Source: a virus. From it: a stretch of DNA of 26,000 nucleotides. The position numbers were made by a program, and so were the translations under genes. Below, piece by piece: positions 2,027-25,294 of this stretch. Where the stretch lies: UHGV virus genome UHGV-0185509; one strand, written 5' to 3'. The first letter of the stretch is position 1, and the number at the start of each line of letters is the position of its first letter. The notes under the pieces are model-generated. The model ran no database searches, was not told the DNA's origin, and saw only the letters and a list, made by a program, of their open reading frames with translations.

Positions 2027-2541
2027 GCATAAGAGAACTAAACCTCACCAAAGAACAGCATGAGTGGCTGAATTGCTGGCTTGAACTGTGGGGCGCATGG
2101 GTTTATTCAGGTCGTCTGGAAAAGCGCATGAGCAGCGTAATAGCGAAGTTCATGGAGAGCGTAGAGCCGGGAAGAGTTATGACAAGGCCAATGTGCAATG
2201 ATGATGATGGAATGTTGATTTCTCAGGTCGTCGATTCCGTCATGTGCATTGACAAGAAAGCCTTTGGCATCCTCCTCAGCTACTACGCTCATGGTTCATC
2301 TAAGCGAGCAATTGCATCCTACTATCACGCGACTGCAAAGCCACGCAAGATGTGTGGACGTGGTGGCGAGGGATGGAGAAAACCTTCACTGGCAACCTGT
2401 AGAAACGAAATTGACGACATCCTGAAAGCGTCGTTATTTGTTTTGTACCAGCCAATGCAAAATGCTTTCAAAATGCGTAAACGTGTTGAGAAAGTTAAGC
2501 ATGTTGCTGTTAAAAGCCTTGACATGCAATTATCCATTTAG
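2023..2541 (+). CDS. Q: late-gene antiterminator Q (QuuD / phage 82 Q-type family)
   Basis: 172 aa; LELWGAWVYSG...PMCNDDDGMLISQVVDSVMCIDKKAFGILLSYYAHG resembles the DLP12 QuuD-type Q proteins; sits directly upstream of a promoter-terminator pair and the lysis genes. Confidence 0.7.
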   Translation: MSIRELNLTKEQHEWLNCWLELWGAWVYSGRLEKRMSSVIAKFMESVEPGRVMTRPMCNDDDGMLISQVVDSVMCIDKKAFGILLSYYAHGSSKRAIASYYHATAKPRKMCGRGGEGWRKPSLATCRNEIDDILKASLFVLYQPMQNAFKMRKRVEKVKHVAVKSLDMQLSI

Positions 2542-2548
2542 CCATAAT
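2519..2548 (+). promoter_or_regulatory. candidate late promoter PR' (sigma70 -35 TTGACA, 18-bp spacer, -10 CATAAT) overlapping the Q stop codon
   Basis: TTGACA at 2519-2524 and CATAAT at 2543-2548 read directly; position immediately after Q and before a terminator matches the lambdoid PR'/qut arrangement. Confidence 0.45.
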
Positions 2549-2561
2549 TAGAAGGTAAACT

Positions 2562-2600
2562 GCCGTTAGTGACTCTTAAGTTGCAACGGTGGCTTTTTTT
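2562..2600 (+). terminator. intrinsic terminator (tR'-like) downstream of Q
   Basis: GC-containing imperfect hairpin (ctgCCGTT...AACGGtGGC) followed by a run of 7 T at 2594-2600. Confidence 0.6.
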
Positions 2601-2604
2601 ATTT

Positions 2605-2679
2605 GGGTCAGTCGTATAAAGGTCATTACGGAAGGCTGTTAACCTTCTTATCGTGGTTCGAGTCCACGCTGTCCCGCCA
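2605..2679 (+). tRNA. tRNA-Asn (anticodon GUU), phage-encoded
   Basis: Hand-folded cloverleaf: perfect anticodon stem GAAGG/CCTTC with loop CTGTTAA (anticodon GTT), perfect T-arm CGTGG-TTCGAGT-CCACG, 3' CCA; acceptor stem has one T-T mismatch and the D-arm is short, so it is atypical. Confidence 0.55.
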
Positions 2680-2684
2680 AACAT

Positions 2685-2760
2685 GCTGGTTTAGCTCCAA
2701 TGGTAGAGCGGTCGCCTTGTAAGCGAATGGGTAGCGGTTCAAGTCCGTTAACCAGCACCA
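2685..2760 (+). tRNA. tRNA-Thr (anticodon UGU), phage-encoded
   Basis: Perfect 7-bp acceptor stem GCTGGTT/AACCAGC, D-arm GCTC-CAATGGTA-GAGC, anticodon loop CTTGTAA (anticodon TGT), T-arm AGCGG-TTCAAGT-CCGTT (one G-U pair), discriminator A and 3' CCA. Confidence 0.65.
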
Positions 2761-3002: not shown

Positions 3003-3326
3003 GTGAAGATGCCAGAAAAACATGACCTGTTAGCCGCCATTCTCGCGGCAAAGGAACAAGGCATCGGGGCAATCCTTGCGTTTGCAATGGCGTACCTTCG
3101 CGGCAGATATAATGGCGGTGCGTTTACAAAAACAGTAATCGACGCAACGATGTGCGCCATTATCGCCTGGTTCATTCGTGACCTTCTCGACCTCGCCGGA
3201 CTAAGTAGCAATCTCGCTTATATAACGAGCGTGTTCATCGGCTACATCGGTACTGACTCGATTGGTTCGCTTATCAAACGCTTCGCTGCTAAAAAAGCCG
3301 GAGTAGAAGATGGTGGAAATCAATAA
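3003..3326 (+). CDS. S: class I holin S (lambda-type), dual-start: GTG-AAG-ATG gives antiholin S107 and holin S105
   Basis: 107 aa, near-identical to lambda S as I recall it ([39 protein letters not shown]...); codons 1 and 3 are both starts (GTG at 3003, ATG at 3009). Confidence 0.95.
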
Positions 3327-4565: not shown

Positions 4566-5096
4566 ATGAAGTACCCAACAGTTATTGTCAATGGTGTGTC
4601 CGTTCGTGTTGATGAGGATGGACGCTACAACTTAAACGATCTCCATGCAGCAGCAGTTGCAAATGGAGAGGCTACAGAGCAACAGCGCCCAAGCCAGTTT
4701 TTGCGTAGCGCGCAGATAAAACGCTTCATAAAAGCACTGGAGGCCAAAGTGCAAAAAAGCACTTTGGAACAAATTCAACCACTTAAAATAATCAAAGGTG
4801 GTGCAGAACCAGGTGTGTGGGGTGTTGAACTTCTGGCAATCAGATATGCAGCATGGATTAAGCCGGAATTTGAAATCGAAGTTTATGAAGTTTTCAAAAC
4901 GGTCGTCCGTCTCGGCGTTGGCGCAATGTCCCGTCTGAATAGAATCGATCACATCATCAATACTGAAACCAAAGCGATAAGCCAGTGCGCAAGCCAAATG
5001 GCTAAGTGGGGCGTTGGTGGGCGAAAAAGATTGCTTCATGTTGCACGTGAGAGAGCGGCAAATGAAGTGCAAATGTATTTGCCCGGAATGGTGTGA
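4566..5096 (+). CDS. KilA-N domain protein (accessory gene between lysis and packaging modules)
   Basis: 176 aa; N-terminal region (VIVNGVSVRVDEDGRYNLNDLHAAA) fits the KilA-N DNA-binding domain pattern; flanked by non-coding DNA on both sides. Confidence 0.6.
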   Translation: MKYPTVIVNGVSVRVDEDGRYNLNDLHAAAVANGEATEQQRPSQFLRSAQIKRFIKALEAKVQKSTLEQIQPLKIIKGGAEPGVWGVELLAIRYAAWIKPEFEIEVYEVFKTVVRLGVGAMSRLNRIDHIINTETKAISQCASQMAKWGVGGRKRLLHVARERAANEVQMYLPGMV

Positions 5097-5282: not shown

Positions 5283-5663
5283 ATGAACGACCAGCAAATC
5301 GAAAAAGAAATCGTTGAGAAAGGCAAAACGGCACCGCGAATCACCCCGCAGCACATCGAAGACGTGATTAAAAGCGAGCATTACTTTACTGCTTATGATG
5401 GACGAAATGGTGCCATTTCCAGCAACGAATATTGTGGCAGGGAAAAACCAGAAGAAGGCGATCGTGATTTATCACCATTGAAGTTGCTCACTTTCTGCGT
5501 ACTGGTGCTGAAGAATGGCTTCACCGTTACCGGAGAGAGTGCCTGTGCAAGACCGGAAAACTTTGATGCAGAAATTGGTCGGAAGATTGCCCGGCAGAAT
5601 GCTGTAAACAAAATCTGGATGCTCGAAGGTTACTTGCTGAAGCAGAAGCTAAGCGAACAGTAG
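5283..5663 (+). CDS. conserved phage protein of unknown function
   Basis: 126-aa ORF with good coding appearance; sequence looks familiar from lambdoid prophages upstream of terminase but I cannot name the family. Confidence 0.5.
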   Translation: MNDQQIEKEIVEKGKTAPRITPQHIEDVIKSEHYFTAYDGRNGAISSNEYCGREKPEEGDRDLSPLKLLTFCVLVLKNGFTVTGESACARPENFDAEIGRKIARQNAVNKIWMLEGYLLKQKLSEQ

Positions 5664-20538: not shown

Positions 20539-22401
20539 ATGACAGACATTACAGCCAATGTGATCGTATCAATGCCTTCGCAACTCTTCACTATGGCGCG
20601 TTCTTTTAAAGCCGTAGCCAATGGAAAAATTTATATCGGTAAAATTGACACTGACCCGGTAAATCCTGAAAACCAGATTCCGGTTTATGTAGAGAACGAA
20701 GACGGCTCTCACGTTCCTGTTTCGCAACCAATAATCATTAACGCTGCCGGATATCCGGTATATAATGGACAGATTGCCAAGTTCGTAACTGTGCAAGGCC
20801 ATTCCATGGCTGTATATGATGCGTATGGTTCGCAGCAGTTCTATTTTCCGAATGTGCTGAAGTATGACCCTGACCAGTTTAGACAGGTTATAGAGGGGCC
20901 TGACGGGGCTTACGATGTTGGGTACACAACAGCATTTAATAATAATGAGATAACCGTTGGAGATGCGCTCGATAATAAAATTCCTAACATTATTGGTAAC
21001 GTTGATGTGCCACCAACTGGGTTTATTTTCCATCCATTCACAAGATATAGCGGAGACCATGACTTGCGATATATCAACGGTGGAAACCCCAAATCAATTA
21101 AAAGGCTGAAGAAGACGGGTAATGCCACCGTCACGCTCAACCCTATCACCACTGAGGGTTCCAGCCCTAGCAAGTTAACCGTCGATACAGTAGGGTACGT
21201 TAACCCGGCAAACGCCGACCCCGACGGCACTACATTTCCGGCAGGAATAAAAATTGATGGTGTCACATTTGAAGGGGACGATGCCGGCGGGCAAAGCGGT
21301 TTAACAATACTGCAAGGACACAATTTTCAGATTAAAGAATGCGGATTCTCTAAAACAAAGATTGCGATATGGTTACGTGACGTATGGATGTCGTCGGTAA
21401 GAGACTGTAGTTTGTTCGGACAGTACCTACAAGAGGGTGGAACCAGCATGACTATTGAGAATTGTTATGCGACAGTGCACGACAGCACGGTGACTCCTGG
21501 AGCATTCAGAATTTCAAATCTTCAATACTCATCCATGTCTAGCTGCGCTTCTGATGGCACCGTAAATACAGCGTATTACTTCAACGGTAATAACGGGCTT
21601 AAGGTAACGAGTTGCGGTTCGGAAGTACCAACAGCTCTAGACAAAAACTACGGGACAGCCGCGCATTTCGAAGAAAGTAACGAGATGATACTTGATAATT
21701 TCTACACATTACCTGCTTCGGGTAGCAATATTCTGTTCTCTATAAAAAACAACAACGATCTTGTATTCAATAATACTATGGTTTACGGGGATCCGGCAAA
21801 ATGGAGTCGGGATTTCTGGTTACTTGGTTCCGGGAATAAAGTAGTTGTTAATGGGGGGACTTTTGGGAATACAGGGCGTATCCCGTTGGTGGCAACTAAC
21901 GCTGCTGGTAACACGTTTATCTACAACAGTACTGATGGCAATAGCTACATCGCTAAAACGACTGGCGCGGCTATCACTGTAACCCTTGAACCTAAATTCC
22001 TTAGCAAAACTCTGGATCTTACATCCGATGTGGTCTTTGCAAATAGTGGCCCAGTTACTGGTGGAACCAAGGACATTAAGTTCACTAAGAGTGGTAACAT
22101 TGCTACGGTAGAATTTAATATCACCATCCCTGACATATCTGGCAAAGTAGGTCAACTTTTGATAAATGGCTTACCTTATGCTGCGGCACAGTCTGGTAGC
22201 GGTAGTGTATCTATAGCTTTAGGTCTTGCCACAGGGGTTGGTAATATCACTTGTGTAATACTAAGGGATGACAACCAAATTATGTTTTACAAGTCAACTA
22301 CAACTAGTGGTGTGTCTTCAGCTCTAGGTCCATCTGACTTAATTAATGGGAGTAGTTTAAGGGGGAGCATTACTTACTCCTGCGTGTCTGACTGGGATTA
22401 A
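20539..22401 (+). CDS. gp9: tailspike protein: P22 gp9-type N-terminal head-binding domain fused to a different receptor-binding (beta-helix) body
   Basis: 620 aa; first ~110 aa ([11 protein letters not shown]...[38 protein letters not shown]...[16 protein letters not shown]...NVLKYDPDQ) match the P22 tailspike N-terminus, while the remainder has no resemblance to the P22 body that I can see. Confidence 0.9.
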
Positions 22402-22482: not shown

Positions 22483-24006
22483 TTATTTGCAACTAATCTT
22501 TCTAAAATCAATGACAAAATACTTGTCATTCACAAATGTATTATACATTTGTCCTTTTGAAACCATTTTCATTTCGCATGGGTTAATCGTATAATTGGCA
22601 TTCTCTATGGGATTCTGTATACCAAACATTTTTATCATACCTTTTCCCCACCATCCATTATTATAGTAAAGAGGAACAACTGAAGAGAGGGAGGGAAATC
22701 TTCTTATAGCATTATCTCTTTGCGGAGATGAAGGTTGCACTCCAAAAAACATGATGGTTTTTGTGGCCTCTGGATCGTTACGTGATATTTCCTCTGCCAT
22801 GATATGCGATAAAAAATAATCAAATTTATTTTGAGCGTCCATAGCACTTCCAAATGCGTATGAGTAGACTAGAAGCGGTAATACGAAAGGTGTTGATAAT
22901 ATGATATGATGCTTAAAGTTTTTAATTAAAGAAAAATAAGATATGCCAACTAATAGCATAAATCCGCTAAACGAAGCCATGACTCTATCTGAGAATACTG
23001 GATATTTTAATAAACATAAATGTATTGCAGCAAATGCCATTATTATTAATGGAGATATCAATAACAAAATAATTATAATTAAATTTAAAAATGATCTTCT
23101 GTTATTGTTAAATATTCCAATGGCTGTCTTTATAATAAATATTGAAACTGTAGCCAAGGAAATTAATGAAAGTAATAGCATGCCATTAACATATAGCAAC
23201 ACCATTGATAAAAATGCCAATGCATTATTTATGAAAATATTAATTCCTTCACGATCAATACTTATTAATGTGGAGTGCTCAATGTTATATTCTCCGAATA
23301 CGAAGTGAGCTGAAATGTTGCTATATATAAAGTATCCAACAAGTAATTGCGCAGCTCTACATAAAATATCTATAATTAGGTCTAGTTGTTTTGTGTATTG
23401 CTTATTAGATGCGTTAATTATGAATTCTATTACTGCCAGACACACAAAAAATCCTATAACAGCCTGGTACAAGCAAAGGGATATAACAACGAAAGAAACT
23501 GAGAAAAACCATTTTAATAATTTTGAACTGTACGATAGGAACGGGAGCAGCATAAGTGACAACGCTGCTATCATTGGTACAACATCGAATTTATAAGATA
23601 AATTTTCAAGCAGAAAAGGGTTTGCAATAATTAGAAAGCATATAACGGCTGAAGCTATGCTATTAAAGTGGTTAAGGTTTGAACGAAAATATAAATATGC
23701 GCATATAATAAAAATTATTATCCCGATAAATAATGTAAGCGGAGAAATGTCAATTGTTGACTCTGCATTCAAGTTAACTAAAGACATTAATAGGTCCGCA
23801 AGAGGTCTTCCATTTGAACTCCATCCAAAATAACCATCCTGTGCTCTTCCAAGATCGTCTATGTAGTATCTATTGGCAATTATTATCGGGATGATATAAA
23901 TAAAACAAAGAGATGATAAATATATTAAAAATAATTTACCTTTTGAGTCCATATGATATTTAATAATTTTATGGCCAGTAATTAATTTGCTCATTGTATA
24001 ATCCAT
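22483..24006 (-). CDS. serotype-specific O-antigen glucosyltransferase (GtrC / Gtr-type family), polytopic membrane protein
   Basis: 507 aa, multiple hydrophobic segments, very AT-rich; sits immediately downstream of gtrA-gtrB in the same orientation, the canonical position of the type-specific gene. Confidence 0.8.
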   Translation of the reverse strand: MDYTMSKLITGHKIIKYHMDSKGKLFLIYLSSLCFIYIIPIIIANRYYIDDLGRAQDGYFGWSSNGRPLADLLMSLVNLNAESTIDISPLTLFIGIIIFIICAYLYFRSNLNHFNSIASAVICFLIIANPFLLENLSYKFDVVPMIAALSLMLLPFLSYSSKLLKWFFSVSFVVISLCLYQAVIGFFVCLAVIEFIINASNKQYTKQLDLIIDILCRAAQLLVGYFIYSNISAHFVFGEYNIEHSTLISIDREGINIFINNALAFLSMVLLYVNGMLLLSLISLATVSIFIIKTAIGIFNNNRRSFLNLIIIILLLISPLIIMAFAAIHLCLLKYPVFSDRVMASFSGFMLLVGISYFSLIKNFKHHIILSTPFVLPLLVYSYAFGSAMDAQNKFDYFLSHIMAEEISRNDPEATKTIMFFGVQPSSPQRDNAIRRFPSLSSVVPLYYNNGWWGKGMIKMFGIQNPIENANYTINPCEMKMVSKGQMYNTFVNDKYFVIDFRKISCK

Positions 24007-24023
24007 GTGATTCCGTAGTTTGT

Positions 24024-24935
24024 CTATTTTTTAATGATATATCTTGGTCTTGATTTAGACTCTATATATATTCTACCTATATACTCACCAAGAACCCCTA
24101 TCCCAATCAGTTGTACACCGCCTAAAAAGAGGATTGATACAAGTAAAGATGGGTATCCACGAACAGAATTACCAAAAATTAGAGTGTCAAAAATCATCCA
24201 TGAGCCATATATAAATGCTAGCCCAGCGACTAATAAACCAATATACGTCCACATGCGAAGAGGGAAGGTCGAGAAGCTCGTGATACCCTCAAGTGCTAGG
24301 TTCCACAATTTCCATCCATTGAATTTAGAGTCACCGGCAACACGTTCTGCCCTCGCGTATTCCACAACATCTGTGCGACCGCCAACCCAACTCAGCACAC
24401 CTTTCATAAAAAGGTTGCGCTCTGGCATAAGCTTAATGTTTTCGACAACTTCACGGCTCATTAACCGGAAATCGCCGACATTCTCCTCGATCTTTGGGTT
24501 GCTTATTTTGTTGTGCAATTTATAAAACCACTCTGCCGTTTTGCGTTTCAGTCGTCCGTCAGTTGAGCGATCAGTTCGCTTAGCCAGCACCATATCAGAG
24601 CCTGCCTGCCACTTTTCGATGAGGTGGGGAATAACCTCAATCGGATCTTGCAGGTCAACATCAATTGGAATTACAGCATCTCCGGTTGCATGGTCTAGCC
24701 CTGCAAACAATGCTGGTTCTTTACCAAAGTTTCGTGTAAATGACAGCGGAACAACCAGCGGGTCTGAAACAGCCAGAGCATTAATAATTGACTCCGTAGC
24801 GTCTTTGCTTCCGTCATTTATGAAAACAATTTCCACTTCATATGGCTTCAACTCTTCGAATTCACGTACCGTTTTATAAAAAATTGGTATCGCTTCTTCT
24901 TCATTGAAGACAGGAACTACAAGAGATATCTTCAT
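24024..24935 (-). CDS. gtrB: bactoprenol glucosyltransferase GtrB (GT2 family)
   Basis: 303 aa; N-terminus ([19 protein letters not shown]...INDGSKD) is a GT2 signature with DxD-like region ([10 protein letters not shown]) and two C-terminal TM helices, as in GtrB. Confidence 0.9.
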
Positions 24936-25294
24936 TTCGTATCCCTAAAGACAATGAACTTTGAATAGACGAAACCGCACACCAGACTGATGGCGGAGAA
25001 GGTGATAAGAGTGATAATTGGAGGAAATGAGCACTTATCAGCAGCCCATCCAACAGTAGCACTCAGTGTTCCCATGAACCCGACATATAACATGTAGCGC
25101 ATCGTTGTAGTCGATGCTTTGAATGTGAATCTTGCATTCGCGAAGAAGCTAAAACTCACAGCCACAACGAAACCTGCGAAGTTTGCAAGAGCTTGATTGG
25201 TATGCGCGCCATAGATACATACACCAAAAACCACCCAGTGTATAAGTGTGTTCAGCACACCAATCGAGGTGTACTTTGCAAATAGCTTTAACAT
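24932..25294 (-). CDS. gtrA: GtrA flippase-like small membrane protein
   Basis: 120 aa, four hydrophobic segments, start motif [20 protein letters not shown]; overlaps the gtrB start by 4 nt; first gene of the three-gene gtr operon. Confidence 0.85.

Follow-up and report, generated by a model that had tools for sequence, protein, structure and literature searches.

A tRNA-Asn and tRNA-Thr pair in the late leader of a P22-like phage as a probable replacement for nuclease-cut host tRNAs

Introduction

The nuclease Old of prophage P2 kills mainly by cutting the host tRNA-Thr(UGU) (Govande et al. 2025, PMC12445682). The cuts fall directly 3' of the C in paired CNG motifs (positions 28–30 and 40–42), and the target is encoded in MG1655 by thrU, a single-copy gene for a tRNA of low abundance that is the sole UGU tRNA of this strain (PMC12445682). 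Phage tRNA-Thr(UGU) genes, that of phage 21 included, restore viability under Old+Gam toxicity and resist cleavage, which has been attributed to changes in the CNG motifs together with a shorter anticodon stem (PMC12445682). Rescue from Old toxicity by these Thr tRNAs is only partial, and over-expression of the host thrU gives little or no protection (PMC12445682). Old cleaves further host tRNAs as well; the kinetics of tRNA-Asn(GUU) have been compared with those of thrU, which is cut fastest (PMC12445682).

A second anticodon-stem nuclease, AriB of the PARIS system, cleaves tRNA-Lys(UUU) as well as tRNA-Thr(UGU) and, secondarily, tRNA-Asn(GUU) at 40|41 beside the sequence U36-A-A-U39 (Belukhina et al. 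2025, PMC12409363). U39 is essential for this cleavage (PMC12409363). The Lys, Thr and Asn variants of phage T5 jointly neutralise PARIS, with the T5 tRNA-Lys being required for escape (PMC12409363).

Among lambdoid phages, two tandem tRNA genes were described for SfI, Sf6, ST64T, PS3 and p21 in the 2013 paper on SfI. In the GenBank record of Shigella phage Sf6, pR', qut, tR', tRNA-Asn and tRNA-Thr are annotated, the two tRNAs with the remark 'similar to phage 21'; further annotated pairs are those of BTP1, SPN9CC, vB_SosS_Oslo and others. It is an ordinary element that is already annotated in dozens of GenBank records and was in print by 2013.

Here we analyse a stretch of 26,000 nucleotides from the virus genome UHGV-0185509, referred to below as the window, in which an initial annotation made by reading the sequence had placed an Asn-GUU and a Thr-UGU tRNA gene at positions 2605–2760, between Q and the holin gene. 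We compare this pair with its described relatives and weigh what it may do for the phage.

Results

Position of the pair in the late leader

The window belongs to an E. coli phage or prophage of P22-like (Lederbergvirus-like) type, in which genes of the nin region are followed by Q, the tRNAs, holin, endolysin, Rz, the virion genes, the tailspike and a gtrABC operon. Q, a late-gene antiterminator of the phage-21 type with 172 aa, is encoded on the plus strand at 2023–2541 (PF06530 Phage_antitermQ, E 1.4e-25), and the records of Sf6, HK75 and BTP1 list its homologues as Q. A consensus scan located the late promoter pR' at 2519–2548 (+), with a -35 element TTGACA, an 18-nt spacer and a -10 element CATAAT (11/12 matches); pR' is annotated at the same position in Sf6 and HK75. 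Downstream at 2560–2604 (+) lies tR', the intrinsic terminator of a short late leader, made up of a 33-nt hairpin (2560–2592) and the tail C-UUUUUUUAUUU, which forms a run of 7 U. The RNA fold of tR' has -14.9 kcal/mol and a z of -3.4, none of 200 shuffles being equally stable, and the terminator is annotated in Sf6, HK75 and phage 21. The first late protein gene 3' of the cassette encodes a holin of the lambda S family (PF05106, E 7e-30) in an ORF at 3003–3326 (+) with the dual start GTG 3003/ATG 3009; genes 60/61 of Sf6 are annotated as holin inhibitor and holin. The location of the pair between Q and holin and its start directly after a tR'-like terminator, both proposed in the initial annotation, thus agree with the annotated features of the related phages.

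Two other possibilities raised by this position were rejected. A separate tRNA promoter would have no room, as the terminator tail ends one base before tRNA-Asn, and the promoter scan gave pR' alone. An att-site or integration role of the tRNAs is spoken against by their position between Q and the lysis genes.

Past tRNA-Thr by 8 nt, the late leader contains a strong hairpin without a U-run at 2768–2817 (+; RNA fold -26.3 kcal/mol, z -3.65). Its sequence is also found in HK75, which has no tRNAs, and at least its 5' half in phage 21. As judged from this comparison the hairpin belongs to the flank and not to the cassette, and it could serve in processing or stability of the late mRNA.

Elsewhere in the window, an O-antigen glucosylation (serotype-conversion) operon with a gtrC-like gene (PF14264), gtrB (PF00535) and gtrA (PF04138) occupies 22483–25294 on the minus strand, directly downstream of a tailspike gene with a Head_binding domain at 20539–22401. 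Two genes encode KilA-type regulators, one in the nin region (470–1192, with Rha and ANT/KilAC domains) and one between the lysis cassette and the terminase genes (4566–5096, KilA-N). A member of the N4 gp49/Sf6 gene 66 family is found at 5283–5663.

The nearest relatives of the locus are the lambdoid pairs already described. Over the 600 bp that surround the cassette the window is 98% identical to Sf6, and the pairs of phage 21, Sf6, SfI and BTP1 match it in gene order, in the 5-nt spacer, in encoding the CCA and in lying right after tR'. Phage 21 and Sf6 have an identical tRNA-Asn, and their tRNA-Thr differs from that of the window by A26G, which for the phage 21 pair leaves 155/156 bases identical. 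The setting of the pair differs: the window combines an Sf6-type pR' region with a lambda-S holin, and in phage 21 these places are taken by a pR'/QBE of its own and by a pinholin.

The slot had also been likened to that in which Stx-type lambdoid phages carry tRNA genes. Indeed, the Stx phage 933W has ileZ-argN-argO in the equivalent position and the same orientation, in the order Q, pR'/qut, terminator(s), tRNAs and late genes. Its isoacceptors are those for Ile and Arg (rare codons AUA, AGA and AGG), whereas the window has Asn(GUU) and Thr(UGU) and no tRNA for the rarest codons. Furthermore, a putative tRNA promoter, pT, is annotated in 933W, where the tRNAs lie about 370 nt from the first terminator, as compared with one base in the window.

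Two tRNA genes with intact identity elements

ARAGORN called exactly two tRNA genes in the whole 26 kb window, both on the plus strand: tRNA-Asn(gtt) at 2605–2679 (75 nt) and tRNA-Thr(tgt) at 2685–2760 (76 nt). The CCA is encoded in both, and between them the same strand reads AACAT, a 5-nt spacer at 2680–2684 that is AATAT in many relatives. Against Rfam RF00005, for which the gathering score is 29, tRNA-Asn scored 55.3 bits (E 1.4e-9) and tRNA-Thr 61.2 bits (E 3.3e-11), with both matching model positions 1–71 of 71. The ARAGORN coordinates coincide with those read by hand, and both tRNAs, at about twice the threshold, are far above the gathering score in the covariance-model check that had been proposed.

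In the Infernal alignment tRNA-Asn has two non-standard pairs, U4·U69 in the acceptor stem and U13·U22 in the D stem, the latter leaving a D stem of 3 pairs; these are the T-T acceptor mismatch and the short D-arm that hand folding had indicated. The tRNA has a G73 discriminator, a 4-nt variable loop and an anticodon stem GAAGG/CCUUC, and its conserved T-loop and D-loop nucleotides are intact. The canonical look ascribed to tRNA-Thr is likewise borne out by the alignment, in which G27·A43 is the single irregularity. This tRNA has G1-C72, C2-G71, the anticodon arm GUCGC-CUUGUAA-GCGAA and the G26 allele.

By E. coli rules, AsnRS recognises the anticodon G34-U35-U36 and the discriminator G73, while the ThrRS identity set consists of G1-C72, C2-G71, G35 and U36. 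Sequence reading finds each set complete: tRNA-Asn has the loop CUGUUAA and G73 before CCA, and tRNA-Thr reads GC...GC-A-CCA with the loop CUUGUAA, at positions that are invariant in 20 variants.

Automated folding had been suggested as a further check and gave a divided answer. The covariance model supports both cloverleaves, and minimum-free-energy (MFE) folding returned a near-cloverleaf for tRNA-Asn but an alternative fold for tRNA-Thr. MFE folds off the cloverleaf are common for unmodified tRNA sequences, and the misfold of tRNA-Thr carries little weight because the covariance-model and covariation results outweigh MFE folding. Both elements are predicted to be functional phage-borne elongator tRNA genes.

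Anticodon stems and tRNA-cutting nucleases

The anticodons of the pair are those of known nuclease targets, Thr(UGU) being the prime target of Old and a prime target of AriB, and Asn(GUU) a secondary one of AriB. In K-12, the anticodon stem of thrU is ACUGA/UCAGU, with the motifs CUG/CAG and U39, and that of asnT is GCGGA/UCCGU, with CGG/CCG and U39. The window tRNA-Thr has the stem GUCGC/GCGAA, in which these positions read UCG/CGA and G39, and tRNA-Asn has GAAGG/CCUUC, in which they read AAG/CUU and C39. Neither stem contains an in-register CNG or U39, and in tRNA-Asn it is the A28-U42 pair that removes both CNG motifs. The anticodon loops of both are those of the host tRNAs and the stems alone differ. 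Unchanged loops on altered stems fit nucleases that cut the anticodon stem. Motif absence is the default for a foreign tRNA, expected by chance in about 15 in 16, and by itself is weak evidence.

The pair thereby resembles the nuclease-resistant phage tRNAs on several counts at once, in that its isoacceptors correspond to the targeted host tRNAs, the loop is unchanged and the stem is without CNG and U39. The window tRNA-Thr stem is in addition effectively shortened by G27·A43, as in the reported resistant Thr tRNAs. Its anticodon arm is identical to that of phage 21, with A26G the only difference in the whole tRNA. By sequence, the window tRNA-Thr is a one-base allele of a tRNA whose action against Old has been validated by experiment.

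T5 Thr and T5 Asn are likewise without both CNG motifs and U39. In T5, Lys, Thr and Asn form part of a block of some 25 tRNAs that has promoters of its own, whereas the window has Asn and Thr only, which would be expressed by late read-through. The cassette alone should not defeat B185-type PARIS because it is without Lys, the main target of AriB; tRNA-Lys(UUU), which would complete the AriB target set, occurs in none of the 126 loci listed below.

We propose that when the host thrU is cut in its anticodon stem by Old or AriB, the phage tRNA-Thr would survive and take over. It would do so with a retained loop and ThrRS identity on an effectively 4-bp anticodon stem that presents neither CNG/CNG nor U36-A-A-U39. 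tRNA-Asn may do likewise for the secondary target tRNA-Asn(GUU), a role that is plausible, and extra capacity for the ACA-rich and Asn-rich late genes would be a compatible second benefit. Our best explanation, to which we give a probability of about 0.7, is that the pair is a functional Q-dependent late cassette in which tRNA-Thr, and by extension tRNA-Asn, replaces nuclease-cut host tRNA, with codon supply being secondary.

Besides the missing Lys and the partial rescue from Old toxicity, further observations count against replacement. The tRNA-Asn of Klebsiella phages has C28-G42, which restores the paired CNG; Q, which must be translated before the cassette can be expressed, has 1 ACA and 5 Asn codons; and it is the Thr slot, described below, that is the plastic one. 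Our literature search found neither a stated function nor a resistance test for the lambdoid tRNA-Asn.

Codon usage of the late genes

Codon usage was compared between 19 late genes of the window and 42 K-12 genes, a comparison that the initial annotation had called for. ACA is used at 16.1 per 1000 codons in the late genes (28.6% of Thr codons) versus 5.4 per 1000 (10.2%) in K-12 (OR 3.0, p 6.5e-13), and Asn codons at 55.3 versus 37.7 per 1000 (OR 1.5, p 2.6e-8). The 3-fold enrichment of ACA and the 1.5-fold enrichment of Asn codons are therefore present but not specific, as the values for AGG (6.9-fold), AGA (5.5-fold), AUA (3.2-fold) and UCA (3.1-fold) equal or exceed that of ACA, and the cassette has no tRNA to match them.

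These enrichments could be taken to mean that the tRNAs solely raise the decoding of ACA and AAU/AAC, independently of defence systems, and the case is helped by thrU being the only UGU tRNA of MG1655. Supply of Asn, by contrast, should hardly be limiting, given the several asn tRNA genes of E. coli K-12 (asnT/U/V/W). The close relative IME10 has late genes about 95% identical to those of the window but carries no tRNAs; since near-identical genes do without the pair, codon demand alone does not dictate its carriage. The site is empty in lambda and HK75 as well. The same ACA bias was reported in the SfI paper (2013), whose authors saw no Asn bias and called the significance of the Asn gene 'not clear'. 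A role in supply alone also leaves unexplained why the stems deviate from the host exactly at the mapped nuclease determinants while the loops are identical, and why the phage 21 tRNA-Thr rescues cells where thrU over-expression gave little or no rescue. For these reasons we consider it unlikely that codon supply is the whole function. The true enrichment of ACA and Asn codons nonetheless means that plain supply accounts for part of the pattern. Supply and replacement are compatible roles, and the high ACA load makes loss of the single-copy thrU costly for late protein synthesis.

Distribution and transcription of the cassette

A scan of IMG/VR with a 35-nt tRNA-Asn pattern yielded at least 120 loci, or 126 together with the annotated loci and the window. 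The pattern fixes tRNA-Asn positions 30–64, which makes conservation there uninformative; tRNA-Thr lies outside it. The plain Asn+Thr cassette is found at 100 of the 126 listed loci. A further 8 combine Asn and Gly with a Thr that escapes ARAGORN, 9 are Asn-Phe-Thr(-Arg/-Gly) variants, 1 is Asn-Thr-Gly and 5 have Asn alone, to which 3 truncated loci are added. The cassette is present in 369/5426 complete E. coli genomes (about 7%). Among about 185,000 species-representative genomes tRNA-Asn occurs in 5, either Enterobacteriaceae or MAG contigs that are short and probably mis-binned; two such contigs carrying the phage tRNA-Asn are binned as Segatella copri and Collinsella sp. (L134, L137), probably through a binning error. 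A chromosomal origin of the Asn gene was rejected on the same scan, as per their records none of the 5 genomes has it in an ordinary tRNA context.

The cassette is mosaic, lying behind different Q and promoter types and before different lysis cassettes, and lambda, HK75 and IME10 have tRNA-less sites. We asked whether the HK75 slot holds an alternative cargo and rejected this, because it mostly begins like the lambda post-tR' sequence, an empty-site arrangement. The slot (about 1705–1910 of the HK75 locus) ends in a T-arm/acceptor-like stretch (GGTTCGATTCCGGCCGCCACAACC) and has a weak, sub-threshold match of 20 bits to the tmRNA family. In a prophage of E. coli E2348/69 the tRNA pair is 100% identical to that of the window and the late genes are unrelated. 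There, an HNH endonuclease gene (24198–24710) is inserted between Q and tRNA-Asn, and the prophage has a gene for an anti-RecBCD protein as well; in T5, too, HNH genes are scattered through the tRNA block. Given its HNH gene and its unrelated late genes, the E2348/69 prophage was rejected as the source of the window despite the exact match.

Phage P1 has a tRNA-Asn/tRNA-Thr pair with the same anticodons, order and adjacency as the window. The sequences are distant, with a BLAST identity of about 81% for Thr and an Asn that is clearly more divergent by alignment. The paired CNG is retained in P1 Thr and UAAUCA in P1 Asn, and the P1 pair lies outside a Q-dependent late leader. P1 (1425–3078) and the lambdoid JLK-2012 (1603–2433) share the order tRNA-Asn, tRNA-Thr, tciA-tciB, and in JLK-2012 an STnc100 sRNA (107 bits) is found downstream of tciB.

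At the 126 listed loci the first tRNA nearly always adjoins the U-run of the late-leader terminator, and these terminators are of several unrelated types. A phage-21-type tR' hairpin precedes the cassette at no fewer than 88 of them, in combination with three different promoter regions, lambda's own tR' (checked against lambda positions 44,724–44,790) at about 17, and other hairpin types are seen as well. Conservation of this adjacency across unrelated terminators supports transcription from pR' by Q read-through, and Q-mediated read-through as the driver of the cassette fits the architecture. Late transcripts would begin at pR' and would normally end at tR'; RNA polymerase modified by Q would read through, so that the tRNAs are co-transcribed with the lysis and virion genes. 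RNase P and exonucleolytic 3' trimming would then free both tRNAs, as judged from the arrangement of the genes. Our literature search found no published tRNA expression data for the lambdoid Asn-Thr cassette.

Such processing also suggests a function of another kind, namely that the tRNAs mainly punctuate the RNA, in that RNase P would cut the late mRNA free of the Q-loading leader and terminator, while decoding would be incidental. tRNA punctuation is known in other systems, and the tRNAs are packed tightly between the tR' hairpin and the 2768–2817 hairpin. However, late operons of the same type are expressed in lambda, HK75 and IME10, which have no tRNAs there. Punctuation would need neither intact synthetase identity elements nor recurring anticodons, and the Asn GUU and Thr UGU pair recurs in P1 and in Klebsiella phages. 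We regard this explanation as very improbable.

Sequence variation in the two tRNAs

tRNA-Asn is 79% identical to the host gene and is itself identical in Sf6, phage 21, phage L and JLK-2012, the flanks of which differ. Relative to the window, the Klebsiella-phage tRNA-Asn has compensatory changes at 6-67, 7-66 and 28-42. U4·U69 is unpaired in 13/15 and U13·U22 in 15/15 tRNA-Asn variants of the listed loci. Because these mismatches are fixed while neighbouring pairs covary, we view them as conserved features of the tRNA. Free variation at the listed loci is confined to D-loop position 20, where all four bases occur; the discriminator is U73 instead of G73 at 2 of 126. The description of tRNA-Asn as divergent or decaying therefore holds for its first half, given the distance from the host gene, while decay is rejected on the conservation and the compensatory changes.

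For tRNA-Thr, 20 variants were available. Among them 5 of 21 pairs have changed on both sides (3-70, 5-68, 6-67, 49-65 and 51-63) and 94.8% of cells are paired, values reached by at most 1 in 500 shuffles, while slid controls gave 0–2 compensatory pairs. The G27·A43 mismatch is invariant across these variants, and G26 is the minority allele, present in about 20 of 109 Thr genes surveyed at the listed loci. Because compensatory stem changes occur in both Thr and Asn, we conclude that both genes are under selection.

The slot that degenerates or is swapped in some lineages is that of Thr and not of Asn. At one locus (L112) tRNA-Thr is a hybrid, with nucleotides 1–25 of the phage type and 26–76 identical to the host thrU. 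Loci of the L015 and JLK-2012 types (8 listed loci; JLK-2012 positions 1281–1356) have this hybrid plus G42U and U43C, which together abolish the 3' CNG motif and shorten the anticodon stem to 3 bp. Hybrids of these types are missed by ARAGORN, and the JLK-2012 copy scores 49 bits in Rfam. The series from L112 to L015/JLK-2012 is suggestive of selection by a stem-cutting nuclease and would also be compatible with decay. In phage L cII-101 (1281–1352), and also in ST64T and PS3, the second slot is occupied by a tRNA-like sequence of 72 nt that is degenerate; in phage L it is entered in GenBank as tRNA-Leu(TAA), with 42 bits in Rfam and no ARAGORN call.

A relic in decay, without current function and kept by linkage alone, is a scarcely credible account of tRNA-Asn or of the whole pair: the two non-standard pairs, the degenerate second slot of phage L/ST64T and the missed ARAGORN calls in JLK-2012-type loci could be read in this way, but tRNA-Asn stays identical between differing flanks, three of its stem pairs change in compensation while the mismatches stay fixed, and its identity elements, CCA and T-loop/D-loop nucleotides are intact at an Rfam score nearly twice the threshold.

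Discussion

Taken together, the essential interpretation of the initial annotation, a phage-borne tRNA pair expressed with the late genes, is supported, and its hedge that tRNA-Asn might be decaying is the sole part that we reject. Our preferred reading, replacement of nuclease-cut host tRNA with codon supply as a secondary benefit, invites a stronger version. In it, tRNA-Asn would itself be nuclease-resistant, and the pair would be a dedicated lambdoid two-tRNA counter-measure against anticodon-stem-cutting Toprim nucleases (P2 Old and relatives), placed at the front of the late transcript, with the JLK-2012 series recording a live arms race. We put this forward tentatively, as somewhat short of an even chance.

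As a discovery the Thr member matters little, since its anti-defence role was published in 2025 for a near-identical allele. For the Asn member there is now a specific hypothesis, that it is a second nuclease-resistant replacement tRNA. The locus offers an example, in a common prophage cassette, that would link Q-dependent late transcription to evasion of the tRNA-cutting defences of rival prophages.
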